This document shows positions 5,925-60,563 of a stretch of 64,000 nt of DNA, piece after piece. Position 1 is the stretch's first letter, and each line of letters begins with the position of its first letter. Origin of the DNA: Candidatus Liptonbacteria bacterium. Lineage in GTDB: Bacteria > Patescibacteriota > Minisyncoccia > UBA6257 > 2-01-FULL-56-20. The translations under genes were made by a program, and so were the position numbers. Below the pieces are notes generated by a model. That model was not told the origin of the DNA, did no database searches, and saw only the letters and a list, made by a program, of their open reading frames with translations. Location: the NCBI GenBank assembly GCA_016182105.1, contig JACOXZ010000011.1, positions 1,218 through 65,217 of the forward strand, read 5' to 3'.

Positions 5925-6025
5925 TCCCGTTAGAAGCCGCGATCGCGTTGCTAAAACTCCAAATATCTATCAATGTACAGTCATTACAATGAACTCGCCT
6001 AGATCGCGATCTGCTTCTAACGGGA
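5925..6025. repeat. family-1 miniature TIR element, copy E1 (about 101 bp; TIR tcccgttagaagccgcgatcgcg / cgcgatctgcttctaacggga)
   Basis: 22-nt terminal inverted repeats read directly. The internal sequence is homologous to E2, E3 and E4. The element ends at the ATG of the downstream gene. Confidence 0.8.
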
Positions 6026-10514: not shown

Positions 10515-10629
10515 TCCCGTTAGAAGCCGCGATCGCGTTGCAAATAAATTAAATATCAACCAAATGCGTAATCGTTACAATAAAATAAACCTGCAGACTT
10601 GCGCAAATCGCGATCTGCTTCTAACGGGA
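10515..10629. repeat. family-1 miniature TIR element, copy E2
   Basis: Same 22-nt TIRs as E1. The element ends at ATG 10629. Confidence 0.8.
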
Positions 10630-12876: not shown

Positions 12877-12972
12877 TGCAAATCTACAAAATCTATGCCA
12901 AGTATGCGAATTGCGAATCCGGAGTTTATTAGCAATTTGTAGATTGGCATTATATTTGCAAATTGGCATAAC

Positions 12973-14542: not shown

Positions 14543-15566
14543 GGTTCTTCTTTTAACAATGATCGGTTTTCTCATGGCCTTGGCAGTGACCCCGATTTGG
14601 TATCGGTTTTTACAGAAATACAGGCTATCCAAACAAATCCGCACTGCGAAAGTTGCCCCGGTTTACAATCAATTTCACGAGAAAAAAACCGGCACGCCCA
14701 CAGCCGGAGGAGTCATTATCTGGGGGACGGTGGTTGGCATCGCCGCGGTCTTCGGGATTTTGGGCTTCGCTTTTAACGGGTTTTGGAAGTATTTGAACTT
14801 TTTGAGCCGAGCCGAGACCTACCTCCCACTGGCTGCCATTTTAATTGCCGGGATTCTAGGGTTTTTGGATGATTGGCTGGGGATTTTGAAGATCGGCGGC
14901 GGAAACGGCGGCGGGCTCAAGGTTCGCTATAAACTCCTGGTCTATCTCTTGATTGCCATAATTGGCGCTTGGTGGTTTTACTTTAAGCTTGATTGGACGG
15001 TTTTGAATATCCCTTTCTACGGCTCGGTTGAGGTCGGCTTTTGGTATATTCCGATTTTTATGTTCATCATTATTGCGAGCGCTTTCTCGGCTAATGAAAC
15101 CGACGGCTTGGACGGGCTTTTAGGAGGAGTGGCTCTTTTTGCTTTCGTGGCATTGACCACGGTGGCATTTGTTTTAGGGAGGTATGACTTAGCGGCCTTT
15201 GGAGGGGTCGTGATAGGAGCGCTTTTGGCGTTCTTATGGTTCAATATCTATCCTGCCAAATTCTTTATGGGCGACACTGGCTCAATGGCTTTGGGAATTA
15301 CTTTGGGCGTGATCGTGATGCTCACAAATACAACCCTACTTCTCCCGTTTTTCGCGATTATCTTAGTCCTTGAATCTTTGTCGGTCTTGATTCAGCTTCT
15401 AAGCAAAAAATTGGCAGGTAAGAAGGTCTTCTTATCCACGCCGATTCACCACCATTTTGAGGCCCTGGGCTGGCACGAGTCGCAGGTTACGATGCGCTTC
15501 TGGATTATCTCCGCGGTCTCCGCGGCCTTTGGACTCGTCGTCTTTTTCCTCACGAGGTTTTTGTAA
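14520..15566 (+). CDS. mraY: phospho-N-acetylmuramoyl-pentapeptide transferase
   Basis: NETDGLDGL and NIYPAKFFMGDTGSMALG motifs. Polytopic membrane protein. Confidence 0.85.
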   Translation: MILLQVSRVLLLTMIGFLMALAVTPIWYRFLQKYRLSKQIRTAKVAPVYNQFHEKKTGTPTAGGVIIWGTVVGIAAVFGILGFAFNGFWKYLNFLSRAETYLPLAAILIAGILGFLDDWLGILKIGGGNGGGLKVRYKLLVYLLIAIIGAWWFYFKLDWTVLNIPFYGSVEVGFWYIPIFMFIIIASAFSANETDGLDGLLGGVALFAFVALTTVAFVLGRYDLAAFGGVVIGALLAFLWFNIYPAKFFMGDTGSMALGITLGVIVMLTNTTLLLPFFAIILVLESLSVLIQLLSKKLAGKKVFLSTPIHHHFEALGWHESQVTMRFWIISAVSAAFGLVVFFLTRFL

Positions 15567-15605
15567 GCATTTAAAATTCTATGAGTTTTTCGTTAAGCTT
15601 ACGTT

Positions 15606-16886
15606 TTGCTAGACTTTGGTTTTCTTGGTATTCTCTGGTTAATGCTTCAATCTAGACTTTTTACTAAGGTCGCCCGTAACTTCCCAAAAGATGAAGAGGC
15701 GATAAACGCCAAGCTTCTTACGCGGGCGGGGTTTGTGGAGAAAGTTTCGGCGGGTGTATATTCGTTTTTGCCGCTCGGACTTCGCGTGATGCGTAAGATT
15801 GAAACAATTATTCGCGAGGAGATGAACGCGCTAGGTGGAATGGAGATCTTGATGCCCGCGTTGCATCCTAAAGAAAACTGGGAGACGACTGGCCGCTGGA
15901 AGACTTTTGACGTGCTCTATAAAATCAAATCGCGGGAAGGCAAAGAATTTGCCTTGGGTCCGACACACGAAGAAATCGTGGTGCCGCTAGTGGCGAAATT
16001 CGTGAATTCCTACAAAGATTTACCTGTTTATCTTTACCAAATACAGGACAAATTCCGAGATGAACTGCGCGCGAAATCAGGCCTTCTCCGAGGTCGGGAA
16101 TTCTTGATGAAGGACTTATACAGTTTTCATACCTCCGAAGGCGATTTAGACTCTTTTTATGAAAAAATGAAAAAAGTTTATACGAAATTATTTTCCCGAG
16201 CCGGACTAAAAACTAGAATAGTGAAGTCATCCGGCGGCACTTTTTCCAAATATTCTCATGAATTCCAGGTATTGACCCCAGTCGGCGAGGATGCGGTTTT
16301 CTACTGCGAAAAGTGCGATTTTGCCGAAAACAAAGAGATTGCAGAGGTAAAAGAAGGGGACAAATGCCCAAATTGTGCGGGGAAAATAAGGGTAAGCCAG
16401 GGAATTGAGGTCGGCAATATCTTCAAATTAGGCACCAAGTTTTCCAAGGATTTTGAGCTTCTCTATAAAGACGAGAAAGGCAAGGAGAATCATATCTCAA
16501 TCGGCTGTTACGGCATAGGCCTTAGCCGGCTTATGGGCGCCATAGTAGAGATTTTTCATGATGAGCAGGGCATAATTTGGCCGGAGACAGTCGCCCCTTT
16601 TGCTGCGCATCTTATAGAGCTTGGGGAAGGCAAATCCAAAAAGCTCTACCACGATTTACAAAAAGCCGGAATAGATGTACTTTATGACGACAGGAATATA
16701 TCACATGGCGAGAAACTGACAGAAGCGGATCTGATTGGCATACCCCTACGTCTGGTTCAGAGCGAAAAAACCGGCGCGAAGATTGAGGTCAAGCGCCGCG
16801 ACGAGAAAGATTCAAAACTGATGACAGTGTCACAAGTTATAAAATTACTACAACCTACAACCTACAACCTACAAACTATAACCTAA
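15606..16886 (+). CDS. proS: proline--tRNA ligase (short archaeal/eukaryal-type class II)
   Basis: Class II aaRS motifs and a C-terminal zinc CxxC...CxxC. The C-terminus is encoded by an acctacaa word repeat. Confidence 0.75.
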   Translation: MLDFGFLGILWLMLQSRLFTKVARNFPKDEEAINAKLLTRAGFVEKVSAGVYSFLPLGLRVMRKIETIIREEMNALGGMEILMPALHPKENWETTGRWKTFDVLYKIKSREGKEFALGPTHEEIVVPLVAKFVNSYKDLPVYLYQIQDKFRDELRAKSGLLRGREFLMKDLYSFHTSEGDLDSFYEKMKKVYTKLFSRAGLKTRIVKSSGGTFSKYSHEFQVLTPVGEDAVFYCEKCDFAENKEIAEVKEGDKCPNCAGKIRVSQGIEVGNIFKLGTKFSKDFELLYKDEKGKENHISIGCYGIGLSRLMGAIVEIFHDEQGIIWPETVAPFAAHLIELGEGKSKKLYHDLQKAGIDVLYDDRNISHGEKLTEADLIGIPLRLVQSEKTGAKIEVKRRDEKDSKLMTVSQVIKLLQPTTYNLQTIT

Positions 16887-16888
16887 TC

Positions 16889-17932
16889 ATGTCCCTCTTT
16901 GATAATTTTTTTAGAGACATCGGCATTGACCTTGGCACGGCTAATTCGCTCATATATCTCAAAAATCACGGCATTGTCGTGAATGAGCCTTCGGTTGCAG
17001 CCGTGAATACCAAAACCAGTCAGATTTTGTCGGTCGGCGAGGAGGCCAAGAAAATGTTTGGCCGCACGCCGGCTCACATAAACGTGATCCGGCCACTTGT
17101 GGCTGGCGTGATCTCGGATTTCGAGATGACCCAGGAATTGCTCCGCCAGTTTTTAAAAAGAGTGAGCCGTGGAACTTTTGCGAGCTTCAGGCGCGGGGTG
17201 CTTGCGATTCCGAATAGCTTGACCGAAGTCGAACGAAAGTCAGTCGAAGACGTGGCCTTGAATGCCGGCTGCAGCAAAGCCTACCTTGTGGAGTCACCGG
17301 TTGTGGCGGCCTTGGGAGCTGGGTTGCCAATCAACCTTCCGGTCGCGAGCCTCATTGTTGATGTTGGCGGCGGAACCACTGATATTGCGGTCATATCCCT
17401 GGGCGGGGCAGTAGCTTCTAAGACCCTGAAAATTGCCGGCGACCGGATGAATGACGATATTGTACGTTTCGTAAAAGATGAATTTCGGCTGGTAATCGGC
17501 GAGCCCACAGCCGAGCTTGCGAAGATAACGGCGGGCTCGGCAGCGCCGATTGATGAGCGGCTCGAGGTGACTTTACGCGGCCGGGATGCGGGAACCGGCC
17601 TACCCCGCGAGGTGGCGATCAAAAGCAATCAGGTTCGAACCGCCATCTCCAAATCCCTGCGCTCGATTATTGATTCCGTAAAAGAAGTGATTGAAGTCGC
17701 GCCGCCTGAACTTGTGGGCGATATGTTAAAGCAGGGGATTTATCTCTGCGGCGGCGGCGCGCTCCTCCGAGGTTTTGACGAACTTATTGAAAAAGAGACA
17801 TCGGTCATGACAACCATCGCGGAGGACCCCCTCACATGCGTCGCTCGCGGCTTGGGCCAGATTATCGATAATTTTGAACTTCACCGAACTTTACTCGACA
17901 ACCCTTTGAAGCCGCCGACAATTAATCTATAA
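16889..17932 (+). CDS. mreB: rod-shape determining protein MreB
   Basis: Actin-fold motifs IGIDLGTANS and DVGGGTTD. Confidence 0.85.
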   Translation: MSLFDNFFRDIGIDLGTANSLIYLKNHGIVVNEPSVAAVNTKTSQILSVGEEAKKMFGRTPAHINVIRPLVAGVISDFEMTQELLRQFLKRVSRGTFASFRRGVLAIPNSLTEVERKSVEDVALNAGCSKAYLVESPVVAALGAGLPINLPVASLIVDVGGGTTDIAVISLGGAVASKTLKIAGDRMNDDIVRFVKDEFRLVIGEPTAELAKITAGSAAPIDERLEVTLRGRDAGTGLPREVAIKSNQVRTAISKSLRSIIDSVKEVIEVAPPELVGDMLKQGIYLCGGGALLRGFDELIEKETSVMTTIAEDPLTCVARGLGQIIDNFELHRTLLDNPLKPPTINL

Positions 17933-17934
17933 AA

Positions 17935-18618
17935 ATGGGCCGCGAACGCTGGCTTTTGGGAATTTTGACTTTGCTTCTTGCGGCACTGATTTTTCTGCCG
18001 CTGCCTTCACTTCTCGAGTTTAAGAAATTTTTAGGCTCTGGAGGCGAAGAGGTTATAAATAATCCGATTTTAGAGAACGTCGCTTTGAAATCGGAACTCG
18101 CGAAGCTCGAGGAAATTAAAAGACAGCTTGGAGAATGGTCGCCAAAATACCTAAGCGCCTCGGTTTATTCCCGTTATCCCTTTAATCTCAAAAATGAATT
18201 TTTGGTGAATGCGGGCCTAGACCAGGGTCTTAAAGGGGGGGAGGCGGTTCTCATTGGGAAATTGCTAGTCGGTCAAGTGGATAAAGTTTTTGAAAATACA
18301 GCACTCGTGAGGACTGTTTTTGACGAACGATGGAAAGAGGCTGTGAGGATCGGAGGGGAAGGGATAGACGCGCTTCTCGAAGGCGGTAATACCCCAAAGG
18401 CGACTTTGATCGTGAAGGATGCCAAAATCTCCGAAGGCGATATCGTCTATAACGCAAGCCCGGAATTTCCTTATTCTCTGCCGATTGCCGAAGTAAAAGA
18501 AATAGGGATTTCCAAGGACCAGATTTTTAAAGAAGCGGTTTTGGAGTTTGGATATGACTTGGGCAGGATTAGCGCCGTTTTAATCTTAAAAAACTATGCC
18601 CCGCCGCCTCAAGAGTAA
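17935..18618 (+). CDS. mreC: MreC-like protein
   Basis: Position immediately after mreB, an N-terminal TM and a coiled coil. Weak direct similarity. Confidence 0.5.
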   Translation: MGRERWLLGILTLLLAALIFLPLPSLLEFKKFLGSGGEEVINNPILENVALKSELAKLEEIKRQLGEWSPKYLSASVYSRYPFNLKNEFLVNAGLDQGLKGGEAVLIGKLLVGQVDKVFENTALVRTVFDERWKEAVRIGGEGIDALLEGGNTPKATLIVKDAKISEGDIVYNASPEFPYSLPIAEVKEIGISKDQIFKEAVLEFGYDLGRISAVLILKNYAPPPQE

Positions 18619-19054
18619 TTTTCTTGTCGCATTTCTTATCGTTTCTTTTGCAGTAGTCCTTCAGCTGAAGATAGGCTTAATTTCAAGTTTGTATCCGAAT
18701 TTCACTTTGGCTGCTTTAATTGCCTCGGCCCTTTTTCTTGATTTCTCCGAACTGGGCTTTTTAGTTTTTTTTAGCGCCCTCATCTTAAACTGGCGGCCGG
18801 GTTTAAGTCCAGAGATTATGGTTTTAATCAGCCTGCCAATCACAGTTTCTGTTCTTAGAAGATTTTTGCCGGCCCAAGCGTGGATGAACCTCGTTCTTGC
18901 CCTCGTCCTCGGTCTCTTGGTTTTTTATTCCGCAGCCGGCTTTCAGAGTTTGGTCAAAAACTTTAATATTTTCTTAATAGACCTTACTATAAGCACGGTC
19001 GTTGCTGTCCCAACTTTTCTTATCCTTAAAACCCTCAATGCCTCGAAAATATAA
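18596..19054 (+). CDS. mreD: MreD-like small polytopic membrane protein
   Basis: Position between mreC and PBP2, 152 aa, all-hydrophobic. Confidence 0.4.
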   Translation: MPRRLKSNFLVAFLIVSFAVVLQLKIGLISSLYPNFTLAALIASALFLDFSELGFLVFFSALILNWRPGLSPEIMVLISLPITVSVLRRFLPAQAWMNLVLALVLGLLVFYSAAGFQSLVKNFNIFLIDLTISTVVAVPTFLILKTLNASKI

Positions 19055-20933
19055 AGCCAAAAATTTTACCGATTTCGAGGAGTCGTTAAATGGCGGCTCA
19101 CGCGAGGAAGTCATAGAGGTGCCCTTGAGCAGCCAGCCGCTTTTTTATACGGGCTTATTAATTTTTCTTTTTGCCGCGCTTGCCGTAGGCCGCGTTCTTT
19201 TCTTGGGTGTAGTCTCCGGCGAAATCTATAAAGCCAGGGCCGAGGCCAATTCTAGCGAGCTCGAGCGGCTTCAAGCGCCGAGGGGTCTCGTCTTCGCGAG
19301 AGGCGGAGAAGTTTTGGCAGAAAACCAGCCGGTTTTCCTGGCCGTCTTGAAGACCAGCGAATTTCTAAAAGACGAGTCTATCCAAGAAAAAACGCTTGCT
19401 TCAATCAAGGAGATTATGGGAATTGATAGAGAACTAGTCTGGAGTCTGATCAAAGAACGAGACCAAGAAAGAATAGGCGACCCAATTGTTCTTAGCGCCG
19501 ACCTAAGCCAAACTGAGCTAATTCAGCTTAAAAGCCTCAATTCCTTGTCCCTGGTCGTAGAGAGCGGTTTCAAGAGGAATTATCCGGACGGCCCAATTTT
19601 TTCTTCCATAATTGGCTATACCGGACTCCCTACCGCCCTAGATCTTAGAGAGAATGCCGAACTTACCGGCGTGGATTTTGTTGGCAAATCCGGCCTAGAG
19701 GCTTTTTACGATAAAGATCTCCGCGGAAAAAACGGATTTTTAGCGTATCTCCGCGATGCCAAAGGTGAAATCTTCGAAGAAAAAAAGGAGAGGCCAGTCG
19801 AGGCAGGAGCGGCTCTCAATTTAACAATTGACGCTGAATTTCAGCGCTATTTTTACCACAGGATGCAAGAGGGACTCACCTCATTAGGGAGAAACTCCGG
19901 CGTTGGTCTGGCGTTAAATCCGAGAAACGGCGAGGTTTTGGCCCTGATTAATTTACCGAGCTACGACCCCAATATTTTCTTGGCTCCAGAGAAAAACGAA
20001 GAGAGGTTGAAACTCTTGAATTCACCGGAGACGCCCCTGTTCAATCGGGCTATAAGCGGCACCTACAGCCCAGGTTCCACAATTAAGCCGCTCGTGGCTC
20101 TCGCGGCTTTGAGCGAAGGCGTGATCAACACCGAAAAACAAATTTATTCCCCAGGCTATCTTGAAATTCCGAATCCTTATGACCCCCAGAAACCCACTCT
20201 TTTCCTCGATTGGCGGCCCCAGGGCTGGGTGAATTTAGAGCGGGCCATTGCTCAGTCCTCGAACGTTTATTTCTACACTGTAGGCGGTGGCTTCGGCGAT
20301 ATTAAGGGGCTGGGGATCAAACGTTTAAACGACTGGTGGCAAAAATTTAATTTAGGAAAGCTCACTGGCATTGATTTACCTTGGGAGGCCAAGGGACTTT
20401 TGCCCACAGTCGAGGAAAAAGAAAAAAGAACCGGCACGCCCTGGCTTTTGGGCGATACTTATAACGTCTCAATTGGCCAGGGAGATCTCTTGCTTACTCC
20501 TCTTCAGATTTTAAACTACGTTGCCGCAATTGGAAACGGCGGGAAAATCTACCGGCCGTTTCTTGTCTCGAATTTCAAACACTCCGAAGTTGCTAGCGAC
20601 CTTTCTAATCTTCAAACTCAAATTTCTGAAGTGGAGAAAGGCATGAAGGCCGCAGTGAATTTTCCCTTAGGCACCGCCTACCTCCTTCACGATCTTCAGG
20701 TCTCGGTCGCTGCAAAAACCGGAACAGCCCAGATTTTGTCGAACACCCAGGCCAACGCCTTCTTTGTCGGTTTTATGCCGGCCGAGGATCCTGAAATTGT
20801 TATCCTGATTTTAGTTGAACGTTCGCGCGAAGGCAGTTTAAACACCGTGCCTATCGCTAAAGACGTGCTTAACTGGTACTACTTAAACCGGATCCCTCAC
20901 CCTTCAGAGATTTTATCTACGTCATCAAAATGA
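19002..20933 (+). CDS. mrdA: penicillin-binding protein 2 (transpeptidase)
   Basis: STIKP (SxxK), SSN and KTGTA motifs. The last 11 codons and the stop codon lie inside family-2 repeat F2-1. Confidence 0.8.
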   Translation: MLSQLFLSLKPSMPRKYKAKNFTDFEESLNGGSREEVIEVPLSSQPLFYTGLLIFLFAALAVGRVLFLGVVSGEIYKARAEANSSELERLQAPRGLVFARGGEVLAENQPVFLAVLKTSEFLKDESIQEKTLASIKEIMGIDRELVWSLIKERDQERIGDPIVLSADLSQTELIQLKSLNSLSLVVESGFKRNYPDGPIFSSIIGYTGLPTALDLRENAELTGVDFVGKSGLEAFYDKDLRGKNGFLAYLRDAKGEIFEEKKERPVEAGAALNLTIDAEFQRYFYHRMQEGLTSLGRNSGVGLALNPRNGEVLALINLPSYDPNIFLAPEKNEERLKLLNSPETPLFNRAISGTYSPGSTIKPLVALAALSEGVINTEKQIYSPGYLEIPNPYDPQKPTLFLDWRPQGWVNLERAIAQSSNVYFYTVGGGFGDIKGLGIKRLNDWWQKFNLGKLTGIDLPWEAKGLLPTVEEKEKRTGTPWLLGDTYNVSIGQGDLLLTPLQILNYVAAIGNGGKIYRPFLVSNFKHSEVASDLSNLQTQISEVEKGMKAAVNFPLGTAYLLHDLQVSVAAKTGTAQILSNTQANAFFVGFMPAEDPEIVILILVERSREGSLNTVPIAKDVLNWYYLNRIPHPSEILSTSSK

Positions 20934-21023
20934 GTACTACAGACAAGACGTTTCCTTTCAAAGTCGCTCGGCAAAAGAGATCACACCATGAAAAATCGTG
21001 CATGATCTCTGAATGGTGAGGGA
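20893..21023. repeat. family-2 miniature TIR element, copy F2-1 (about 131 bp; TIR ccctcacccttcagagat / atctctgaa.ggtgaggg)
   Basis: Homologous to the copies at 34724 and 62973. It ends at an ATG. Confidence 0.8.
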
Positions 21024-21364
21024 TGATTCAAAAATTTATTCGATTTAAAATCACAAGCGCTGCTTTCTTCGCGAGTTTGACACTGGTTTTAAGTGGATGG
21101 CTTTGGGCCTATTTTTCGTTAAGAAATCTCCCGCCACCCTATATTCTTAGGTTTGTGAGCAATCTTGGTGTGACCCAATTAGGCGATCTTCAAGACATTG
21201 CCGCCGCCGGAGCCGTGGCCATGATAAGCGTGCTTTTGAATTTTATACTGGCTTTTGAGCTTGAGACCAAAGCAAAGTTTTTAGCGAAACTCCTGACTTT
21301 TTCAACCCTGACTTTTGCCGCCTTGATTTTCATCGGCTTCGCCGCTATTATTAGCGTCAACTAG
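21023..21364 (+). CDS. hypothetical small membrane protein
   Basis: 113 aa with three hydrophobic segments. The start is supplied by the end of F2-1. Confidence 0.35.
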   Translation: MIQKFIRFKITSAAFFASLTLVLSGWLWAYFSLRNLPPPYILRFVSNLGVTQLGDLQDIAAAGAVAMISVLLNFILAFELETKAKFLAKLLTFSTLTFAALIFIGFAAIISVN

Positions 21365-21445
21365 TGGATAGTGTGCTAGTGACTAGTGACTAGCGCACTA
21401 GCCACCAACGTACTAGTCACTAATGCACTAGTCACTAACTCTCAT

Positions 21446-21757
21446 ATGTCCACATTTGCAATTATCGAAACCGGCGGCAAGCAATACAAAGTTTCTGCCG
21501 GGGACAAAATCAAGATTGAAAAAATCTCTAGGAAAGTGGGCGAGAGTTTTGATTTCGATAAAGTGCTCCTCAAGGCCGACGGAGCGAGCGTGGAGGTAGG
21601 CGCGCCGTACCTCACGGGCGTGAAGGTGGAGGCGACGGTTTTGCGCCAGGCGCGCGACAAGAAAAAAATCGTCTTTAGGTACCACCCAAAAACTCGTTAC
21701 CGAAAGAAGAAAGGACATAGACAGTTCTTTACCGAAGTACAGATTGGGAAGATTTGA
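21446..21757 (+). CDS. rplU: 50S ribosomal protein L21
   Basis: MSTFAIIETGGKQYKV. The ORF-track start at 21386 reads through an upstream actagtcac word repeat. Confidence 0.85.
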   Translation: MSTFAIIETGGKQYKVSAGDKIKIEKISRKVGESFDFDKVLLKADGASVEVGAPYLTGVKVEATVLRQARDKKKIVFRYHPKTRYRKKKGHRQFFTEVQIGKI

Positions 21758-21884
21758 AAGCCCCGCCTTCGTCCGTAAGGACTTCGGCGGGGTGCTCGAT
21801 TTCGTGATCTCGCTTCGCTCGAACGAAATCGGCAAAGGGGCATCGGCAACATTTTACGGAAGTTAAGATAGAGAAAATATAAAA

Positions 21885-21912
21885 CCGTCCGCCTCAGGCG
21901 GACGGTTTTTTT
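21885..21912. terminator. bidirectional rho-independent terminator between rplU and pyrG
   Basis: Hairpin ccgtccgcc-tcag-gcggacgg flanked by T/A runs on both strands. Confidence 0.7.
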
Positions 21913-23533
21913 ATTTCTTCGCAATTGCCGCTTTAATGAACGCCACAAAAAGCGGATGCGGCGCCATTGGGCGCGATTTGAGCTCGGGGTGAAATTGGGT
22001 GCCTACGAAGAACGGATGGTTCTTCAGCTCGATGATTTCCACGAGATTTGTTTCAGGGTTCACACCGGAGAAAACTAAGCCTGCCTTCTCTAGCTTTTCT
22101 CGATACTTGTTGTTGAACTCATAGCGATGGCGGTGGCGCTCTCTCACCATATTTGTTCTATACGCTTTTTCGGCGATTGTGCCTTTCGTGATCCGGCACT
22201 TGTATGCGCCAAGCCGCATCGAGCCCCCGTAGTGTTCTTGGGCGATTTTCCGCGCTTGCTCCGGTAAAACAGCAATCACGGGGTGGGGCGTTTTGGGGTC
22301 GATTTCTGTGGTGTACGCGCCTTTGAGCTTGGCAATATGCCGCGCAAATTCGATTGTTGCAAGCTGCATTCCGTAGCAGAGGCCAAAGTAGGGGATTTTA
22401 TGCTCCCGCGCGTAGCCGATTACCTTGATTTTCCCTTCAATACCGCGGCCCCCAAATCCGCCAGGAACGATAATTCCGGCGTAGCTCTCCAAGGTCGTGA
22501 GGGCCCGGGGATTCGTCTCAAAGACCTCCGCGTTAATCCAATCGATCACCGGCTTCCGTCCAAGTTCCCAGGCCGCGTGCTTTATGGCTTCGATCACCGA
22601 GATATAAGAATCACTCAAAGTAAAGTCGCCGGTTGCGAAGTATTTGCCGACGATGCCGATCCTCACTGGTTTTTTAGCGCGCTGAATTTTTCTCTGGAGC
22701 TTACGCCAAGTTGAACCGTCTCTTTTTCGCGGCTTGAGGCTGAATTTTTTCAAAATTCGGTCGGCGAGTTTCTCCTTCTCAAAATTTAGCGGCACCTCGT
22801 AGATGTTTTTGATGTCGGGCGCCGAGATGATGTCTTCAGGCAAGACGTTGCAGAAGATTGAAATTTTTTCTTTGCGAGGTTTGTCAATCGGGATCACCGA
22901 GCGCGCGAGGATGATGTCTGGTTGTAGTCCGGCGGAGTTCAGGGTCCTCACGGCGTACTGGGTCGGTTTTGTTTTCATCTCGCCCAAATTTTGGGGTACG
23001 GGGAGGTAGCTCACGAGGACGAGGATGAGAGAGGCGGGATCTTTAAGCTTCATAATACGAGCGGCTTCAAGGAAAAGGAGGTTCTGGTACTCGCCAGCGG
23101 TGCCGCCTATCTCAACCAGCGCAAACTGCGCTTTGGATTTTTTGGCGGCAAGCTTGATGCGTCGGATGACCTCTTCCGGAATGTGCGGCACGACTTCCAC
23201 GCACTTGCCGCCGTACTCGAGCCGCCGCTCCCGGTCAATCACTGTCTGGTAGACTAATCCGGTCGTCATATAATTCGGCCGAAGGATATTCGTGTCGAGG
23301 AATCGTTCGTAGTTGCCGATATCCTGGTCACACTCGAGTCCGTCCTCGGTCACAAACACCTCCCCGTGCTCAACGGGGTTCATGGTGCCGGCATCAACGT
23401 TTATGTAGGGATCGATTTTGACTGCGGTGACTCGAAAGCCCCGGTCCTTAAGTAGGGCTGCAATGGCGGCAGAGCCGACGCCCTTGCCGATACCCGACAT
23501 TACACCACCCACAACGAAAATGTATCGCGTCAT
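21911..23533 (-). CDS. pyrG: CTP synthase
   Basis: N-terminal GGVMSGIGKG and a C-terminal glutamine amidotransferase domain with GLCYGMQ. Confidence 0.9.
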   Translation of the reverse strand: MTRYIFVVGGVMSGIGKGVGSAAIAALLKDRGFRVTAVKIDPYINVDAGTMNPVEHGEVFVTEDGLECDQDIGNYERFLDTNILRPNYMTTGLVYQTVIDRERRLEYGGKCVEVVPHIPEEVIRRIKLAAKKSKAQFALVEIGGTAGEYQNLLFLEAARIMKLKDPASLILVLVSYLPVPQNLGEMKTKPTQYAVRTLNSAGLQPDIILARSVIPIDKPRKEKISIFCNVLPEDIISAPDIKNIYEVPLNFEKEKLADRILKKFSLKPRKRDGSTWRKLQRKIQRAKKPVRIGIVGKYFATGDFTLSDSYISVIEAIKHAAWELGRKPVIDWINAEVFETNPRALTTLESYAGIIVPGGFGGRGIEGKIKVIGYAREHKIPYFGLCYGMQLATIEFARHIAKLKGAYTTEIDPKTPHPVIAVLPEQARKIAQEHYGGSMRLGAYKCRITKGTIAEKAYRTNMVRERHRHRYEFNNKYREKLEKAGLVFSGVNPETNLVEIIELKNHPFFVGTQFHPELKSRPMAPHPLFVAFIKAAIAKK

Positions 23534-23560
23534 AATTTAGGATGCGGTATAATTATAGCA

Positions 23561-23959
23561 ATGTCAGAAGAATCTTTTCCATCCTCTGATCATGTTGCGC
23601 TCGAGGCAGATTTAAAGCGGCTCACCCTTGAAATTCAGAGACAAGAAAAATTGCCCGAGAATCGGAATTTGGGCGGTGAAGCGCTCTTGAAGAAATCCTT
23701 GGTCTCGATCGCGCCCACTCCCGAAGAGGCGGGGCTGAAGAGCACGCCCTCTAAGGGCCCTCTCCCGGATTACGCGGAGACCTCCGGCGCCAAAACCAAA
23801 TTAGAAATAGAATATTTTCTGGACTTGGCTTTTCACCAAGGCCTTGACAGAGCCGTGAGAGAGGCGAGAAAGTCGAGCCCCTTTGTGCTTGACGCCTTCC
23901 ACGATGCTTTGGCTGGCAAGCTTTATCCTGAACTCAAAAAAAGGGGGATTCTAAAGTAA
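23561..23959 (+). CDS. hypothetical protein, stop/start overlap with the downstream ATPase
   Basis: 132 aa. It ends at taATGa overlapping the start at 23959. Confidence 0.35.
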   Translation: MSEESFPSSDHVALEADLKRLTLEIQRQEKLPENRNLGGEALLKKSLVSIAPTPEEAGLKSTPSKGPLPDYAETSGAKTKLEIEYFLDLAFHQGLDRAVREARKSSPFVLDAFHDALAGKLYPELKKRGILK

Positions 23960-26317
23960 TGACGGGTTTTTATCTCCTTTTAGGGCTTCTTGCAGCAGTA
24001 CTCATAGGCGGCTTTTATTTTTTGCGTCTTATATCAAAAAGCCGCGCTTTACGGGAATCCCTGGACTTAGGCCTCCTTTTTATCAAAATCCCCAAAGAAG
24101 CCCTTCTCGCTGGCGCTCAAGAGAAAGAGGTGAAGCTTAAAGCGGAGCTCGCCAACTTCGAACAGCTACTGGCCAACCTCGCCTCTTTTAAAAAAACTTT
24201 TGTTTTTGAAGTGGCTGTTCCTCATGTGGGCGAGGAAATTCATTTTTATCTCGCCGTGCCCAAAGTCGCAATAGAGGCGGCGCGAAGCCAGGTTCAAAGC
24301 TTGTGGAGCGGAGCAAGCGTGGCTTTGGTTTCAGACGATTACAGCATTTTTAATCCTCAAGGGACAGTAGCATCTGCTTATCTTCTTCTTAAAGAAAATT
24401 ATAGCTTGCCCATTCGAACCTATAGCGAACTTAACGCCGATTCTTTTGCCTCAATTGTCGGCGCTTTCTCGAAGATCAGCGAAGTTGGCGAGGGAGCGGC
24501 CCTGCAGGTGGTCTTGAAGGGTGCTGGTCAGAACCCCAAGAAGAAAGTTCAGGGATTCATTCGGTTTTTGAAGCGAGGCGAAACATTGAAAAAAGTTTTT
24601 GGCCGTGAATCGGCTTTTGGTCTATCCGTAATAGGGGAGGCTCTAAATCCCGAAGAGCCGGCAAAAGAAAAGCAGGAAAAAGTTGTTGACGAAGAAGCTG
24701 TTCGGGCGCTTGAGGCTAAAATTTCTAAGCCTCTTTTTCAAGTAAACGTAAGGGTGGTTACATCCGCGCCCTCACCTTTTCAGGCTGACGGTATCTTAGA
24801 CGGCATCTTGGCCGGCTTTTCGCAGTTTGGGGCGCCCCGTCGGAACTCTTTTAAGATTGTTAAGCCCAAAAACACCGCGGAGATGGTTCGTAAGTTTATT
24901 TACCGGACCTTTGAGTCAGGCGAGACAATGATTTTATCGAGCGAAGAGGTGGCGAGCTTCTGTCATCTGCCAACTGCGGGAACCGAGATCCCGCGCGTGA
25001 TGTGGCTCAAGGCCAAAGAAGCAGCCCCGCCTTCAAATCTTCCGGCAAGCGGTGTTTTGATAGGCGAGAGCGTGTTCCGCGGGGAAGTCAAAAAGATTTA
25101 TCTCGCTGACGAAGACCGCCGGCGCCACGTCTATATGATCGGCCAGACCGGCACAGGCAAATCCACCCTCCTCGCCAATATGATTGCCCACGACATAAAA
25201 AAGGGCAAAGGCGTGGCTATGATTGACCCGCACGGCGATCTCACAGAGCACGTTTTAGGCCATATTCCCCAAAGCCGAAGGGAGGATTTAATCTATTTTA
25301 ACCCCTCGGATATTTTGAAGCCTTTAGGATTAAACATGCTTGACTACAATTTCGATAGGCCAGAGGAAAAAACTTTTATCGTAAACGAGATGCAGGGAAT
25401 TTTTAACAAGCTTTTTCCTCCGGAGACCATGGGCCCGATGTTCGAACAGTATATGAGAAACGCCCTACTGCTCCTTATGGAAGATATGCCTAATGAGAGA
25501 GCGACCCTGATTGAGGTGCCGAGGATTTTTACCGACCAATACTACCGCGAACGAAAACTCAAACGAATCAGAAATCCAGTTGTTATTGATTTTTGGGAAA
25601 AGGAGGCGGTTAAGGCCGGAGGCGAGGCATCGCTCGCCAACATGACTCCCTACGTCACCTCGAAGTTCAATAATTTTATTTCGAACGACTATATGCGGCC
25701 GATAATTGGCCAGATAAAATCAGCCTTTAATTTCCGCGAGGTGATGGATAGCGGCAAGATCCTGCTCGTGAACCTTTCCAAAGGCAGGATCGGCGACATA
25801 AACGCCGGCCTCTTAGGTATGATTTTCTCCGGCAAAATCCTTATGGCCGCCTTATCAAGGGTTGATATTACGGAAGCCGCAAAGCGCCGGGATTTCAATT
25901 TCTATATTGACGAATTCCAGAATTTCACGACGGATTCAATCAGCGTAATCCTCTCTGAGGCCAGAAAATACCGTTTATCAGTTTATTGCCCAGCTTACGG
26001 AAAAAATACGGGACGCGGTTTTCGGGAATGTGGGGTCGCAGGTTGTTTTTCGTGTGGGCGCGACTGACGCAGAGTTTTTAGTGAAGCAATTCGAGCCGAC
26101 CTTTAGCCAAAGCGATCTTTTAAACATTGATAACTTCAATGCCTATGTAAAGATGCTTGTTTCCGGCGAGACCGCGAAGCCATTTAACATAGAGACATAT
26201 CCCTTGGGCGTGGGCAGCCTTGAGGCCGCGGACGAGCTAAAAGTTTATTCACGAGAGAAATACGGAACGGAGCGCCAAGTTGTTGAAGAAGAAATTTATA
26301 AGAGGCTACGAGGCTAG
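23959..26317 (+). CDS. membrane-anchored P-loop ATPase of the TraD/VirD4/TrwB coupling-protein type, interrupted by a +1 frameshift near 25980
   Basis: N-terminal TM, Walker A GQTGTGKST, and EARKYRLS in frame 1. The conserved continuation IAQLTEKIRDAVFGNVGSQVVFRVGATDAEF is in the +1 frame (ORF 26030-26317). Confidence 0.55.
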
Positions 26318-26337
26318 ATTATGTTATAATAGCAATA

Positions 26338-26849
26338 TGAAAAATATGATTTTTAGCCGAAAGGGGATGACGACTTTTATGTCTATTATGATCGCGATCA
26401 TAGTGCTCGAGCTCGTGGGTATTTTCTATTTTGCTGAGAAGAAAGGTTTTTTGGGCGGGAAGCCGATTGTGCCGGTAACCGTGAGCCTGGTTTCCGAATC
26501 CCAGATTATTGATTACCTTAAGAAAAACCTGCTTGCGCCCTCGGTGGGCAGTTGCACCTACCGGACTTTGGGCGAGAGCGAGCTTACGGCGATGCCAGTT
26601 CATACCTATATTTGGGCTTTGTGTATTGATTTTTATTCAGACAAGACCGTTAGCAGTCCCGTTGATCTTATAGCAAGAACAAGGGATGGCGGAATTGAGA
26701 TTGCTTCACATAAAATACCAAACGAAGCAAACTATCGAAGAGATGTGAAAGACATTTTCCCTTCCCAGATTCAGAATCTAATTTTTGGCTATCCCGCAAG
26801 CGACAAGATAAAAGAAATGCAGACCGAACTTCCGAGACCGTACCTTTAA
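26338..26849 (+). CDS. hypothetical membrane-anchored protein
   Basis: MKNMIFSRKGMTTFMSIMIAIIVLELVGIFYF. No family recognised. Confidence 0.35.
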
Positions 26850-26874
26850 ATAGTTTCCTTGCGCCTTGATCTTT

Positions 26875-28152
26875 TTATCCGAGGCGGTCGTTCTGGGTGA
26901 AGATCTTTAAACCCTTAAGCCACAGGCGGAGCGCTGTCCATCGCGGCATGATCGAGAAAAGATAGTTCAGCTCAACAAGCCCCTTCAATATCCAGCCCCA
27001 AAATCCCGCGACAACCAGTGGCCCGATTTTAGCGACCGCGTACTTCCCGCCGACCGGAGTTATGTAGGGATACTCCATTGATTTATAAACTTTATGATCC
27101 GCAGTTTTAGTTAGGCCATTTTCCATTTTTATATCCTCGATTATGTTTTCTGAAACGACGTTGGCCTGTGATATCGCGGCTCGAGCCACGCTCGGAATCG
27201 GTTTTTCCGTTCGAGGATCGTAGAAACAGATCGTATCGCCTAACCCGTAGACTTTTGAGCGGAATTTTAAATCGGGAGTCTGCGGCAGGCATTCCATTTT
27301 GCCGCGAACAACCACTCGGCCGCGCGCCTCATTCTTTAAGGGCAGCTTTGAGAGGGCTTCCGCGGCTTTGATGCCTCCTGCCCAAATCAAGATATCAAAT
27401 GGTTCTATACGGCCGCTCGTGAGATATGCCTTCTTTTTCTCAACCCTAGTCAGAGATTCGTGAGCGAAGATCTTAACACCCACCCTTTTTAGCCGTTTCT
27501 CGACCAACTTAATAACCCTTGTGTCAAAACCAGGCAGGATCGTTCTCCCCGCTTCGATTATCGCGACCTCAAGTTCGCACTTCCTAAATTCTTTCTCGAG
27601 TTCGCCGCACCATACCTTGAGCTCTGAGGCGAGTTCAACGCCAGTTGCGCCGCCGCCCACAACGAGGATTTTAATATTCTCCTCACCGGCCATCCCTAAG
27701 TTCCAGACGGAGTCGCGGATACGGATAGCATCAGTAAAGGTTTTAAGCGCGAGAGCCGAAGACGCCAGGCCTGGAATATCGAAATAATTGACCTCCGCGC
27801 CCAAAGCGATAACAAGATAGTCGGCTAGAATTTTTTCTTTGCCCCCGAGAATTACTTCGCCACGGATAAGATCAGCGGCTGTGACTTCTTTCTGGAGGAA
27901 GGTGAGGCTTAGATTTTTAATAAGCGGTTTGATCTTATAGGCCGCGACTTCGTGAAGTTCGGCAATATTGGCCAGTGATTTGGAGGTCGTGGCCACTTCA
28001 TAAAGAAGCGGGGTGTAAGTATGGTGGTCGTTTCTATCAATCAAAACCACTTCATAATCTTTAAGGAGCTGAAGAGATCTTAATTTTTTGGAAATTTTGA
28101 TCGCGGCGCGTAGGCCGCCGAACCCAGCGCCCAAGATCACGATTTTTTTCAT
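26875..28152 (-). CDS. NAD(P)/FAD-dependent oxidoreductase (type II NADH dehydrogenase-like)
   Basis: Rossmann GxGxxG motifs MKKIVILGAGFGGL and VVGGGATGVE. Confidence 0.7.
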   Translation of the reverse strand: MKKIVILGAGFGGLRAAIKISKKLRSLQLLKDYEVVLIDRNDHHTYTPLLYEVATTSKSLANIAELHEVAAYKIKPLIKNLSLTFLQKEVTAADLIRGEVILGGKEKILADYLVIALGAEVNYFDIPGLASSALALKTFTDAIRIRDSVWNLGMAGEENIKILVVGGGATGVELASELKVWCGELEKEFRKCELEVAIIEAGRTILPGFDTRVIKLVEKRLKRVGVKIFAHESLTRVEKKKAYLTSGRIEPFDILIWAGGIKAAEALSKLPLKNEARGRVVVRGKMECLPQTPDLKFRSKVYGLGDTICFYDPRTEKPIPSVARAAISQANVVSENIIEDIKMENGLTKTADHKVYKSMEYPYITPVGGKYAVAKIGPLVVAGFWGWILKGLVELNYLFSIMPRWTALRLWLKGLKIFTQNDRLG

Positions 28153-28206
28153 TAGTCTTTAGTGTATAATTAAGTTTAATCTACCGGAAATTTTTTAGCT
28201 ATTCTA

Positions 28207-30146: not shown

Positions 30147-30290
30147 CCTAATGACTAATTGACCTGATTTCTAATCAATGTCTAATGACTTAATTTCCCA
30201 ATTTCTAGCTACGAGTTTTGGATTTGGTCATTAGAAATTGGGGATTGATTAGGTTAATTAGAATAATTAGAGCAATTAGAAATTTTAAAC

Positions 30291-30719: not shown

Positions 30720-30736
30720 GGATGTATAATTATTGT

Positions 30737-31081: not shown

Positions 31082-31115
31082 ACCCCGCCCCTCCATTGGA
31101 GGGGCGGGGTAGTTT

Positions 31116-37488: not shown

Positions 37489-37490
37489 TC

Positions 37491-38531: not shown

Positions 38532-38568
38532 TGTAGAATTTAAACTCTACATCTATTATATATGAAGA

Positions 38569-60557: not shown

Positions 60558-60563
60558 GAGGAG

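Follow-up and report, generated by a model that had tools for sequence, protein, structure and literature searches.

Short tandemly repeated words stand directly before, or across, the start codons of several genes in a 64,000-nt stretch of Candidatus Liptonbacteria DNA (the window; all coordinates are window positions). The locus raises the question of whether these words act as unstructured translation leaders that work without a Shine-Dalgarno (SD) sequence, are locus-specific microsatellites produced by slippage, or have some other origin. The original prediction had offered the first two readings for six places, at which it described different words of 8-9 nt that were nearly G-free and ended close to an ATG. 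Repeats were present at all six places and the units did differ between them, and the 8-9-nt words proved to be overlapping windows on arrays with a period of 7 nt (TRF and self-match scans).

Repeat unit and abundance

The 7-nt period was found at all six sites (TRF and self-match scans), with 3-6 copies per array. At a threshold of at least 3 copies and at least 85% self-match, the window contained 8 period-7 arrays, whereas none of the periods 6 and 8-15 gave more than one. The census sample consisted of 136 related loci plus the window (1.47 Mb, about 1456 genes), the relatives of the window by MreB being Liptonbacteria and Parcubacteria MAGs; its MnmA was 100% identical to a protein from a Candidatus Liptonbacteria MAG. 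TRF detected 130 period-7 arrays in this sample, versus 18, 21 and 38 arrays with periods 6, 8 and 9, respectively (no other period exceeded 38), 4 period-7 arrays in shuffled sequence, and none in a 50-kb E. coli control. The arrays are heptanucleotide tandem repeats, a known 7-nt simple sequence repeat (SSR) class, and occur lineage-wide in Liptonbacteria and related Patescibacteria.

The unit varied by locus (CTACAAC, CTAAAAC, ACTAGTC, ACTACTC, CTAAAAG and others). Unit distance was 2.72 within a genome and 2.81-2.85 between genomes (p = 0.25-0.29), and a genome-specific unit, as expected of one binding factor, was rejected because units were no more similar within than between genomes. A small set of units reused genome-wide, as in cyanobacterial STRR, was not found in the related-loci census.

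An independent Logan assembly of SRR12113430 was 100% identical to the window over 20810-22921, including the array before rplU. Exact-protein look-ups with MnmA and bL21 gave matches solely in Logan contigs from a single run, which did not differ from the window, and those with MreB, the ORF at 41736, the four-helix-bundle protein and RNase H returned no matches. Scanning GTDB genomes and JGI metagenomes with MreB gave no relative closer than 76% protein identity. The proposed comparison of copy number between strains found no same-species sequence, and was possible between species only: copy number was identical in both cross-species comparisons (L017 vs L023, and window vs L163), unlike the expectation for an actively slipping microsatellite.

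Arrays and hairpins matched no Rfam family (only tRNAs exceeded the gathering threshold; RNase P RNA was sub-threshold). Consensus promoter and terminator matches between 15000 and 31200 were as numerous as expected from shuffling, and none coincided with the arrays at 16848, 21360 and 30147, for which reason an intrinsic terminator or sigma-70 promoter was rejected.

Position and strand polarity

Array density was about 7-fold higher outside called genes than inside. Fifty-six of the 130 arrays lay well inside called genes, though 87% of the DNA is coding, and the examples found in coding DNA were in-frame 21-nt blocks or terminal tails. In co-directional spacers with at least 30 nt of slack, 27 of 34 arrays were located within 10 nt of a spacer edge (10.8 expected), and arrays were rare in the middle of long spacers. 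The predicted association with gene starts was confirmed, and was strand-specific: 30 of the 130 arrays ended from -3 to +15 nt before a called start, with a mean sense-strand content of 4.8% G and 19.8% C (starts were called by a home-made ORF scorer, mreB starts alone being anchored by homology). Only 30 genes out of about 1456 (about 2%) carried a start-side array. In long spacers, stop codons were abutted by 13 arrays and start codons by 16, a similar frequency, and the array at one of the six sites forms an inverted terminus of a gene cassette; none of these results favours the leader reading.

Of the 32 start-side arrays, 24 contained more C than G (mean G 6%), and of the 17 stop-side arrays, 12 contained more G than C (mean G 24%); the G fractions differed between the two sides (Mann-Whitney p = 1.6e-4). 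Strand bias was absent from intragenic arrays (26 vs 25) and from all arrays together with respect to the + strand (65 vs 54), and G-depletion through a general mutational bias between the strands was rejected on these counts. Because nearly all genes lie on one strand (134 of 1456 on the minus strand), transcription and replication polarity are not fully separated in this comparison, intragenic arrays being the sole control.

Among the 32 start-side units, 19 contained CTA where 6.8 were expected, and among the 17 stop-side units, 12 contained TAG where 4.1 were expected, both enrichments exceeding the prediction from base composition. Stops were counted on the actual sequences; six-frame-stop enrichment calculated from consensus units overcounts, and was set aside because it also flags arrays inside ORFs. 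Nine of the 32 start-side arrays, and seven of the 17 on the stop side, had an inverted partner within 150 nt (1-2 for shuffled arrays). About one third of junction arrays are inverted pairs folding into a spacer-spanning hairpin, and the majority of arrays are single, without a complementary partner.

Base composition and folding at the six sites

The description as nearly G-free was accurate for three intervals (0%, 3% and 12% G) and failed for four others (21361-21440, 30147-30290, 59025-59087 and 59457-59495), in which G amounted to 16-23%, versus 24.7% in the whole window. In each of the first three of these four, an array is accompanied by its complement and the two form a hairpin, with fold energies of -32.3, -41.8 and -24.1 kcal/mol (z = -3.07, -5.53 and -4.06, respectively). 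The fourth contains a single CTAAAAG array whose local fold was not significant (z = -0.4); its G is due to the unit itself and to G-rich bases flanking the array. Arrays ended near an ATG, as predicted, before mreB (gap of 3 nt), rplU (6 nt), rnhA, the 41736 ORF (5 nt) and the four-helix-bundle gene (2 nt), and did not at the remaining two places: the pilin array lies inside its ORF, and the array at 59461-59492 follows a stop codon, the next start being uncertain.

Enrichment of SD motifs was absent: GGAG, GAGG or AGGA occurred at -20 to -4 in 11.4% of 1066 ATG genes, versus 14% in in-gene controls. G decreased to 11-14% at -12 to -4 of the same genes, and start regions were A-rich and G-poor. 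A 16S rRNA gene, whose 3' end would carry the anti-SD, was not found in the 64-kb window or in any related locus. The single arrays at 16848 and 41700 had folds of 0 and -1.4 kcal/mol. The proposal of SD-independent, unstructured leaders agrees with the lack of SD enrichment and with the folds of these two single arrays, but not with the strong hairpins at three of the six sites.

Single arrays

The array before mreB, (CTACAAC) x5.4 (16848-16885, + strand; sequence, TRF), is a single direct array with 0 G. The ORF of prolyl-tRNA synthetase (ProRS; proS) reads through it as its last 12 codons (LQPTTYNLQTIT and stop), with its stop TAA at 16884-16886, 2 nt ahead of the mreB ATG at 16889. The anticodon-binding domain of ProRS ends at residue 416 of 426, and ProRS of more than 100 relatives ends at about query residue 415-417, some 10 residues short of the array-encoded tail of the window. 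Repeated words were seen by eye in the proS-mreB spacer of about 20 of about 135 relatives, with differing units, and TRF detected a period-7 array at this junction in six (L017, L028, L079, L087, L103 and L133). An array was kept across a sub-clade (L017, L023, L103, L028, L102 and the window) despite change of the unit.

A second single direct array with 0 G, (CTAAAAC) x4.4 (41700-41730, + strand; TRF), was unstructured. The stop TAA of EF-Ts (41701-41703) falls in its first unit, and the array ends before the ATG at 41736 of a 108-aa ORF without a Pfam match.

The third, an in-frame ACTACTC array (56957-56993, + strand; TRF), lies within the leader-peptide coding sequence of a prepilin-like gene (MKLPTTHYSLLTRRG/FSPVEV). 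About 3.4 perfect copies occupy 56965-56988, corresponding to codons 4-12 of the ORF. Three units are 21 nt and keep the reading frame, and the leader without three units (MKLPTRRG/FSPVEV) resembles neighbouring prepilin leaders; the leader has grown by exactly three units. Loss or gain of one unit would cause a frameshift, with a stop at codon 19 or 22, respectively.

A CTATCAC-type period-7 signal inside mnmA (39618-39647, + strand; TRF) was rejected as an in-frame insertion. The peptide that it encodes (LYNLSPNTYHLEF) corresponds in homologues to one of equal length and similar sequence (FYNLQPNTYHLEF in P0002 and LYNPSPETYNLKF in P0100), and since it is conserved, the signal is a false positive of the scan. 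A further period-7 signal was observed at 39886-39915, inside a cobalamin-adenosyltransferase-like gene.

Inverted pairs before rplU and rnhA

The junction before rplU holds an inverted pair of arrays (21360-21439, + strand; TRF). The left arm is of ACTAGTG type (29% G) and starts on the stop TAG of the upstream ORF (21362-21364), and the right arm, of ACTAGTC type (11% G), forms the hairpin with it. The rplU ATG is at 21446, and the Pfam match to bL21 begins at residue 4 of the ORF starting there.

A degenerate inverted pair, with a CTAATGA-type left arm and a TTAG-containing right arm (30147-30290, + strand), fills the entire spacer between a gene with a DHHA1 domain and the RNase H gene (rnhA; ATG 30291; Pfam). 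The hairpin comprises 30148-30271, leaving the final 19 nt unpaired. Arm polarity here is opposite to the general rule, the G-poorer arm being on the stop side and the start side having 20% G.

Four-helix-bundle cassette

The gene at 59088-59456 (+ strand) encodes a four-helix-bundle protein of the 23S rRNA intervening-sequence (IVS) protein family PF05635 (E = 4.2e-38; 130 bits vs a cut-off of 33.8), and is the cargo of a cassette situated between pilin-like genes. As predicted, repeats were found on both sides of it, with CTAAAAG arrays on each side and their complement on the left. At the left end (59019-59085, + strand), AGCTTTTAG-type units (59019-59040) form an inverted arm, which a loop separates from a direct arm of about 4.5 CTAAAAG-type units (59051-59085), the latter stopping 2 nt short of the ATG at 59088. 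The right end, (CTAAAAG) x4.6 (59461-59492, + strand; TRF), is a direct copy of 59051-59085 (29 of 35 positions) and is complementary to 59019-59040; the duplex of the upstream with the downstream flank had -33.8 kcal/mol (z = -3.8). The pilin-like ORF that follows may draw part of its Lys-rich leader (LKAKSYKLKAK) from the right-end array.

The cassette including its arrays was 96.6% identical between the window and L163, versus 77% and 75% for the flanking genes. By part, nucleotide identity was 97.3% for the four-helix-bundle gene and 95% for the left end, versus 77% for the neighbouring pilin gene, and the right-end array of L163 had the same copy number and variant units as in the window. 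Homologues were present in five other contexts (RNR to DsbA, response regulator to histidine kinase, aminotransferase to Mur ligase, FolC-like to TopA, and holB to BNR protein). An array of AGCT-containing heptamers lay upstream of the homologue in all five and a complementary array downstream in four, and upstream-downstream complementarity was significant in four of the five (z = -3.9 to -8.1). Over PF05635 loci, complementary flanks were found in 7 of 9 (duplexes of -19 to -66 kcal/mol, z = -3.6 to -8.1); in L032 and L191 clear flanking complementarity was not found. L021 had the same cassette architecture with a different unit, TTCTAAN; in L032 the homologue was exactly at the proS-mreB junction; and L075 had a solo CTAAAAG array in-frame within a large ORF. 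The CTAAAAG/AGCTTTT arrays are terminal inverted arrays of a small cassette that appears to move between gene junctions.

The cassette shares with the IVS of rRNA genes the PF05635 family, complementary flanks able to form a long stem, and copies at many unrelated sites. IVS with PF05635 ORFs in 23S and 16S rRNA genes have been reported also from CPR rRNA genes (PMC11270868). Unlike these, the present cassette lies between protein-coding genes of an operon and has heptamer arrays as flanks, and excision by RNase III would be hypothetical. A literature search found no paper tying PF05635 genes to flanking repeats outside rRNA. The inverted arrays might, at a rather low probability, be the ends of an undescribed small mobile element of CPR, an IVS-like PF05635 cassette that colonises operon junctions; the arrays at rplU, rnhA and mreB would then be derivatives without ORF or half-sites, and RNase III would cut the stem and uncouple the flanking cistrons.

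Origin and retention of the arrays

The reading that we favour, with about even confidence, is that the heptamer arrays were born by slippage, kept at gene junctions, and filtered so that G-poor, unstructured versions abut starts. Replication slippage would expand a 7-nt unit. Arrays survive only where 20-40 extra bases are tolerated, which is against a stop, against a start, or in coding ends that can be dispensed with, for example the C-terminal tail of ProRS and the prepilin leader peptide. Since the lineage shows no SD signal and its start regions are rich in A and poor in G, an array in contact with a start would be kept only if G-poor and structure-free in the mRNA orientation, with a CTA(A) core. 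The complementary, G-rich TAG orientation sits against stop codons and provides stops in all three frames. Start-side arrays would be passive unstructured spacers, across which ribosomes finishing the upstream gene reach the next AUG, or else would simply be translated through, as by the ProRS ORF at proS-mreB. The pattern of the filter could reflect active selection for an enhancer or mere avoidance of harm.

It is unlikely, in our estimate, that the G-poor arrays are active translation enhancers, that is, SD-independent landing pads for S1 or a cold-shock-type protein that raise initiation at the AUG. Arrays do end 0-10 nt before starts far above chance in a lineage without SD signal, their G content on that side is about 5%, the two single arrays of the window at starts are G-free and unstructured, and the proS-mreB array has been retained across a sub-clade while its unit changed; the same role was proposed for TAACTGA repeats (MacGregor 2015, PMC4679880). 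The share of genes with an array (about 2%), however, shows that this is not the general initiation mechanism of the lineage, and the locus-specific units (p = 0.25-0.29) argue against a single sequence-specific binding factor. The region before the AUG is moreover sequestered in hairpins of -24 to -42 kcal/mol at three of the six sites (21360, 30147 and 59019), stops are abutted about as often as starts, and arrays occur within coding ends as well. It is less probable still that the junction arrays, and the inverted pairs above all, are footprints of mobile elements, as ends or ORF-less, MITE-like derivatives of IVS-like four-helix-bundle cassettes. The enclosed PF05635 gene, its homologues in five other contexts, all with upstream AGCT-containing arrays, the contrast between cassette and flank identity to L163, and the arrangements in L021, L032 and L075 are in keeping with such an origin. 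Only 3 four-helix-bundle genes accompany the 130 arrays in 1.47 Mb, however; most arrays are single, with units differing between sites, complementarity is unclear in L032 and L191, and the cassette showed no sign of a transposase, a target-site duplication or empty-site polymorphism.

Purely neutral microsatellites, slipping everywhere, seen at junctions because lethal elsewhere, having no effect on expression and constrained in orientation solely by the need to spare proteins, are a very unlikely explanation. Heptamer excess is widespread in bacteria and attributed to polymerase slippage (PMC4679880, PMC4692102), and the units that differ between loci, the arrays in tolerant coding ends, and a stop-side placement that is partly automatic where the unit contains a stop codon are what neutrality would give. 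The originally proposed slippage microsatellites agree with the probable origin of the arrays and with units that differ between loci. Neutrality alone does not fit the orientation that differs between start side and stop side while intragenic arrays are unbiased, the CTA/TAG core enriched beyond base composition, the avoidance of mid-spacer positions in long spacers, or the copy number and variant units that were identical across diverged genomes. Phase variation, in which gain or loss of 7-nt units would switch genes as at contingency loci, is highly improbable. It would apply chiefly to the surface-exposed pilin-like gene, whose array at codons 4-12 leads to early stops on a change of one unit and back into frame on a change of three, and a second pilin-like ORF may read through the array at 59461. 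The arrays are short, however (3-5 units), their copy number was unchanged in both cross-genome comparisons, and most precede housekeeping genes (mreB, rplU, RNase H).

Comparison with known repeats

A close likeness is to the G-poor 7-nt unit TAACTGA of marine Beggiatoaceae, which, in MacGregor (2015, PMC4679880), occurs in 2-6 tandem copies directly upstream of SD-lacking starts, precedes housekeeping genes including those for ribosomal proteins, and is in some cases inside ORFs. Both systems share heptamer direct repeats that end a few nucleotides before SD-less starts. The Beggiatoaceae, in contrast, use the single unit TAACTGA genome-wide, whereas here each locus has its own unit and none is TAACTGA; the complementary stop-side class, the frequent inverted pairs and the link to a gene cassette also set the present arrays apart.

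Heptanucleotide tandem repeats are known as short tandemly repeated repetitive sequences (STRR) from cyanobacteria (Mazel 1990, as cited in PMC4692102), and a heptamer excess with a proposal of slippage goes back to Mrazek (2007, as cited in PMC4679880 and PMC4692102). Long SSR have units of 5-11 nt, and those of a length not divisible by 3 favour non-coding DNA, as the present arrays do. STRR and long SSR heptamers share with the present arrays the excess of 7 nt over other periods, the mostly intergenic location and the occasional inverted pairs. The present arrays differ from STRR in belonging to Patescibacteria with tiny compact genomes, not to a cyanobacterium, and in being short (3-6 units); edge position and start/stop polarity are without mention for STRR or long SSR in the available parts of PMC4679880 and PMC4692102. 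The GGGAATC and GGGGA(T/C)T repeats of Xanthomonas and Nostoc are, in Rehm (2015, PMC4692102), intergenic heptamer arrays, with some inverted pairs of hairpin potential, whose position is conserved among related species while sequence and length vary. They are G-rich, and a quadruplex was proposed for them, in contrast to the G-free start-side arrays here.

A likeness at the level of mRNA is offered by the omega leader. The start-side arrays resemble it as G-poor, unstructured short direct repeats directly 5' of an AUG, and it may be a model for those at 16848 and 41700. Omega, from tobacco mosaic virus (TMV), is a G-free, SD-independent translational leader with ACAAUUAC direct repeats and CAA tracts. 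The likeness is without homology, half of the sites here are hairpins, and any enhancer role of the arrays is putative.

Implications

Start-adjacent heptamer repeats have already been described in cyanobacteria, Xanthomonas and Beggiatoaceae; a literature search found no report of them in Patescibacteria/CPR. The present lineage gives an unusually clean view of them, with compact genomes, no SD signal and a simple rule of orientation, the G-poor CTA strand lying towards starts and the TAG strand towards stops. The rule makes it testable how ribosomes locate internal start codons in SD-less operons. The array-bounded four-helix-bundle cassette, exchanged between diverged genomes, provides a handle on a very abundant protein family. 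In annotation, the arrays give rise to spurious ORF extensions and false starts, such as the ProRS tail and the GTG at 21386 taken as the start of rplU.

Heptamer arrays of the window

Tandem repeats were present at all six places named by the original prediction, which had described words of 8-9 nt. Tandem Repeats Finder (TRF) and two self-match scans gave a unit of 7 nt everywhere, the longer words being overlapping windows on the arrays. On the + strand, (CTACAAC) x5.4 preceded mreB (16848-16885), ACTAGTG-type and then ACTAGTC-type units preceded rplU (21360-21439), a degenerate CTAATGA-type tract preceded the RNase H gene rnhA (30147-30290), (CTAAAAC) x4.4 preceded the ORF at 41736 (41700-41730), (ACTACTC) x3.4 lay inside the pilin ORF (56965-56988), and two (CTAAAAG) arrays of about x4.5 (59051-59085 and 59461-59492) lay around the four-helix-bundle gene (59088-59456; PF05635, the family of 23S rRNA intervening-sequence proteins). 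With cut-offs of at least three copies and at least 85% self-match, the self-match scan found eight period-7 arrays vs. none or one apiece for period 6 and for periods 8-15, and no period-7 array in a 50-kb E. coli control. In an independent assembly of run SRR12113430 (Logan), the sequence was identical to the window over 20810-22921 and 36239-40006, so the arrays are not one assembler's artefact. Pfam confirmed the genes for ProRS (anticodon-binding domain ending at residue 416 of 426), MreB, bL21 (true start ATG 21446, not GTG 21386), a DHHA1-domain protein, RNase H, EF-Ts, an Fn3-containing prepilin-like protein and the PF05635 protein. Sigma-70-type promoters and T-run terminators were rejected as identities of the arrays, no consensus hit in 15000-31200 falling on those at 16848, 21360 or 30147.

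Ending a few nt before an ATG, as had been claimed, held for mreB, rplU, the 41736 ORF and the four-helix-bundle gene (gap of 2-6 nt), and the RNase H tract reached its ATG, but the pilin array occupied codons 4-12 of its ORF. Near absence of G was true of three intervals (0%, 3% and 12% G); the remaining four had 16-23% G, vs. 24.7% for the window. G was higher in the rplU, rnhA and upstream four-helix-bundle tracts because each is an array followed by its own reverse complement, and all three formed hairpins, at -32.3, -41.8 and -24.1 kcal/mol (z = -3.1, -5.5 and -4.1, respectively). The interval 59457-59495 was a single CTAAAAG array with insignificant local fold (z = -0.4), its G coming from the unit itself and from G-rich bases flanking the array. 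The proposed unstructured leader thus fitted the mreB and 41700 arrays, both single (0 and -1.4 kcal/mol), and not the three hairpins: single arrays are unstructured and paired arrays are strong hairpins.

Occurrence and placement in the lineage

The nearest MreB relatives (57-76% identity) were all in Liptonbacteria, Parcubacteria or Patescibacteria MAGs, and MnmA was 100% identical to a Candidatus Liptonbacteria MAG protein on a 65.8-kb contig. The mreB loci of GTDB genomes were pooled with those of JGI metagenomes and deduplicated (136 loci plus the window, 1.47 Mb, nearly all genes co-directional). At 2.8 copies or more, TRF called 130 period-7 arrays vs. 18, 21 and 38 of periods 6, 8 and 9, and 4 in shuffled DNA; heptamer arrays are therefore lineage-wide, at about one per 11 kb.

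Although 87% of the pooled DNA was coding, only 56 of the 130 arrays lay well inside genes called with a simple home-made codon-usage caller (mreB starts anchored by protein homology), an approximately 7-fold enrichment outside genes, and 30 ended -3 to +15 nt ahead of a called start. Where a co-directional spacer had a slack of 30 nt or more, placement was bimodal, with 16 arrays at most 10 nt from the start, 13 at most 10 nt from the stop and 7 elsewhere; edge-hugging arrays numbered 27 of 34, vs. 10.8 expected under uniform placement. The predicted association with gene starts was thus recovered, but with a comparable cluster beside stops. Placement beside a stop is to some extent built in where the unit itself carries a stop codon; placement beside a start is not.

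Longer repeated words (e.g. AATTCGCATTATT, TTGCAAATTGGCAT) and their complements also built spacers, at window 12877-12972 and upstream of mreB in L086, L024 and L156 (L-numbers denote contigs or loci of related genomes, with local coordinates), so heptamers are not the sole junction-filling repeat type.

Strand polarity and translation context

C exceeded G in 24 of 32 start-side arrays (mean G 6%, C 20%), and G exceeded C in 12 of 17 stop-side arrays (mean G 24%, C 9%; G fraction, Mann-Whitney p = 1.6e-4). Neither intragenic arrays of the pooled loci (26 vs. 25) nor all arrays on the + strand (65 vs. 54) had a C/G bias, which argues against general mutational asymmetry as the cause and ties G depletion to position; of the first reading, it was G depletion beside starts that held up. 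CTA occurred in 19 of 32 start-side units (6.8 expected with each unit permuted) and TAG in 12 of 17 stop-side units (4.1 expected likewise). The arrays thus have a position-dependent strand polarity and a CTA/TAG core. An inverted partner within 150 nt accompanied 9 of 32 start-side and 7 of 17 stop-side arrays, about one third of junction arrays, vs. 1-2 for shuffled arrays. The usual order was stop, G-rich TAG array, loop, G-poor CTA array and start (L024 7052/7092, L087 7813/7861, L096 14092/14169); the window rnhA hairpin was an exception, with its G-poorer arm at the stop side.

GGAG, GAGG or AGGA occurred at -20 to -4 in 11.4% of 1066 ATG genes of the pooled loci, vs. 14.0% of intragenic control windows, and at -12 to -4 of these genes G fell to 11-14% and A rose to 40-46%. 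The lineage therefore has no Shine-Dalgarno (SD) signal and its start regions are generally G-poor, a rule to which start-side arrays conform and beyond which they go. No 16S rRNA was found in the window or any pooled locus. TATAAT ended 9-11 nt ahead of the ATG of many operon-first genes of the window (e.g. ATGs 1216, 23561, 35441 and 62410), and a T/A pattern at -15 to -10 in the pooled loci matched this placement, which points to leaderless or near-leaderless mRNAs as a common type in the lineage. Heptamer arrays, in contrast to these TATAAT-led first genes, were located at internal operon junctions.

A conserved leader, CGTGCATGATCTCTGAANNGTGAGGG, lay directly 5' of the ATG of three small ORFs of 113, 135 and 212 aa (20997-21025, 34829-34857 and 63077-63105, + strand). 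These were the sole clearly SD-like (GTGAGGG) start regions of the window, and for two of the three leaders the spacer on the 5' side (34724-34854 and 62908-63102) held complementary CCC..CTTCAGAGAT motifs. The 113-aa ORF, the one of the three that was scanned, had no Pfam match.

Arrays in coding sequence and turnover between relatives

The ProRS ORF crossed the array before mreB, since CTACAAC is stop-free in every sense frame; it read through as LQPTTYNLQTIT, with a TAA stop 2 nt before the mreB ATG. In more than 100 relatives ProRS ended about 10 residues earlier, frequently overlapping the mreB start. Removing three units (21 nt) from the prepilin leader, MKLPTTHYSLLTRRG followed by FSPVEV, left a normal-looking MKLPTRRG before FSPVEV; a change of one unit gave a frameshift with a stop at codon 19 (one unit fewer) or 22 (one unit more). 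A CAAAAAT-type period-7 tract (x4.3) inside the cobalamin-adenosyltransferase-like gene (39886-39915) encoded KIRNQKARIRAK. The period-7 signal in MnmA was rejected as an insertion and classed as a false positive of the scan, its peptide being conserved in homologues. MnmA (38569-39744) had a 10-residue insertion at about residues 28-37 (GYARSREARK region), directly behind the PP-loop motif, that was absent in 14 of 14 aligned homologues.

At the proS-mreB junction a repeated-word spacer was seen by eye in about 20 of about 135 relatives, with differing units, and TRF called period 7 in six (L017, L028, L079, L087, L103 and L133). Every member of the sub-clade L017, L023, L103, L028 and L102 had such a spacer, and the orthologous arrays of L017 and L023 were equal in length and differed by point changes only. 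Units were no more alike within than between genomes (p = 0.25-0.29), which makes a single sequence-specific binding factor unlikely.

Proposed origin and role of the arrays

The arrays belong to the heptanucleotide simple-sequence repeats, a class shared with the STRR of cyanobacteria, the TAACTGA repeats of Beggiatoaceae and the GGGAATC repeats of Xanthomonas and Nostoc (PMC4692102). They departed from STRR and TAACTGA repeats in unit reuse and taxon, the lack of greater likeness within genomes setting them apart from TAACTGA in particular. The literature searched yielded no report of heptamer arrays in Patescibacteria, of a start/stop polarity rule with a CTA/TAG core, or of a four-helix-bundle cassette bounded by heptamer arrays.

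We give even odds to the reading that the arrays are born by slippage, kept where tolerated and filtered to G-poor, unstructured, passive spacers at AUGs. Slippage, proposed as the origin of the heptamer excess in bacteria (Mrazek 2007, cited in PMC4679880 and PMC4692102), would generate them, and they would survive at sites that tolerate extra bases. Selection on the initiation region of an SD-less host would admit beside the AUG only arrays that are G-poor and free of structure, and terminating ribosomes may cross these spacers or translate through them. Behind stop codons the complementary orientation would be tolerated, or might be useful as a three-frame stop. The active enhancer role of the original prediction has a precedent in MacGregor's proposal for TAACTGA repeats (PMC4679880), but we rate it less likely, as it is weakened by the rarity of the arrays (about 2% of genes), by the hairpins at half of the sites and by the use of a different unit at each locus.

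The four-helix-bundle cassette

On the + strand the four-helix-bundle gene is bracketed on the left by a AGCTTTTAG-type arm (59019-59040) and a CTAAAAG arm (59051-59085), and on the right by the CTAAAAG arm at 59461-59492. The right arm matched the left CTAAAAG arm at 29 of 35 positions and was complementary to the AGCTTTTAG arm (duplex -33.8 kcal/mol, z = -3.8). In L163, a contig of another assembly with the same pilin context, positions 861-1361 were 96.6% identical to window 59005-59505, with equal copy numbers and variant units; identity was 77.0% in the pilin gene and 75.1% in the downstream gene, and the step lay at the arrays. This alignment suggests that the cassette was exchanged recently, with its site conserved.

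Homologues with 74-79% protein identity occurred in five unrelated contexts: downstream of the ribonucleotide reductase small subunit, and at response regulator/histidine kinase, aminotransferase/Mur ligase, FolC-like ligase/topoisomerase I and holB/BNR-repeat protein junctions. AGCT-containing heptamers lay upstream in all five, and upstream-downstream complementarity was significant in four (z = -3.9 to -8.1). A more distant homologue (L021) had the same layout with another unit, TTCTAAN, and that of L032 was placed exactly at the proS-mreB junction. Since arrays were shared across contexts and with L163, they travel with the gene; the CTAAAAG arrays are terminal inverted arrays of the cassette and differ in nature from the other junction arrays.

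The architecture resembles that of rRNA intervening sequences carrying a PF05635-family ORF, a family reported also in rRNA genes of CPR bacteria (PMC11270868); the literature searched contained no account of such cassettes in places other than rRNA. Homologues numbered 7801 proteins at E < 1e-15, many 70-80% identical and mostly on very short contigs, as expected of a repeated or mobile, assembly-breaking gene. A solo CTAAAAG-type array (CTAAAAGCTAACAGCTATAAGCTAAAAGCT; L075 9130-9165), with no four-helix-bundle gene in its vicinity, lay in-frame in a 2.5-kb ORF and encoded QLKANSYKLKAKF, the peptide type that the window 59461 array would encode.

Other elements of the window

An RNase P RNA of bacterial class A was located at 30735-31086 (+ strand), with a perfect TTGACA-16-TATAAT promoter ahead of it (30703-30730) and a strong terminator behind it (31082-31110); the default Rfam scan missed it because its 93 bits fell below the gathering score of 100. 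The 22-nt element CCCGTTAGAAGCCGCGATCGCG, which includes the palindrome GCGATCGC, occurred four times (0 expected), at 5926-5947, 10516-10537 and 53227-53248 (+ strand) and 60658-60679 (- strand). At 60558-60679 and 53212-53383 inverted copies surrounded about 100-150 nt of non-coding DNA, and the element resembles a small repeat of the dispersed or mobile kind.
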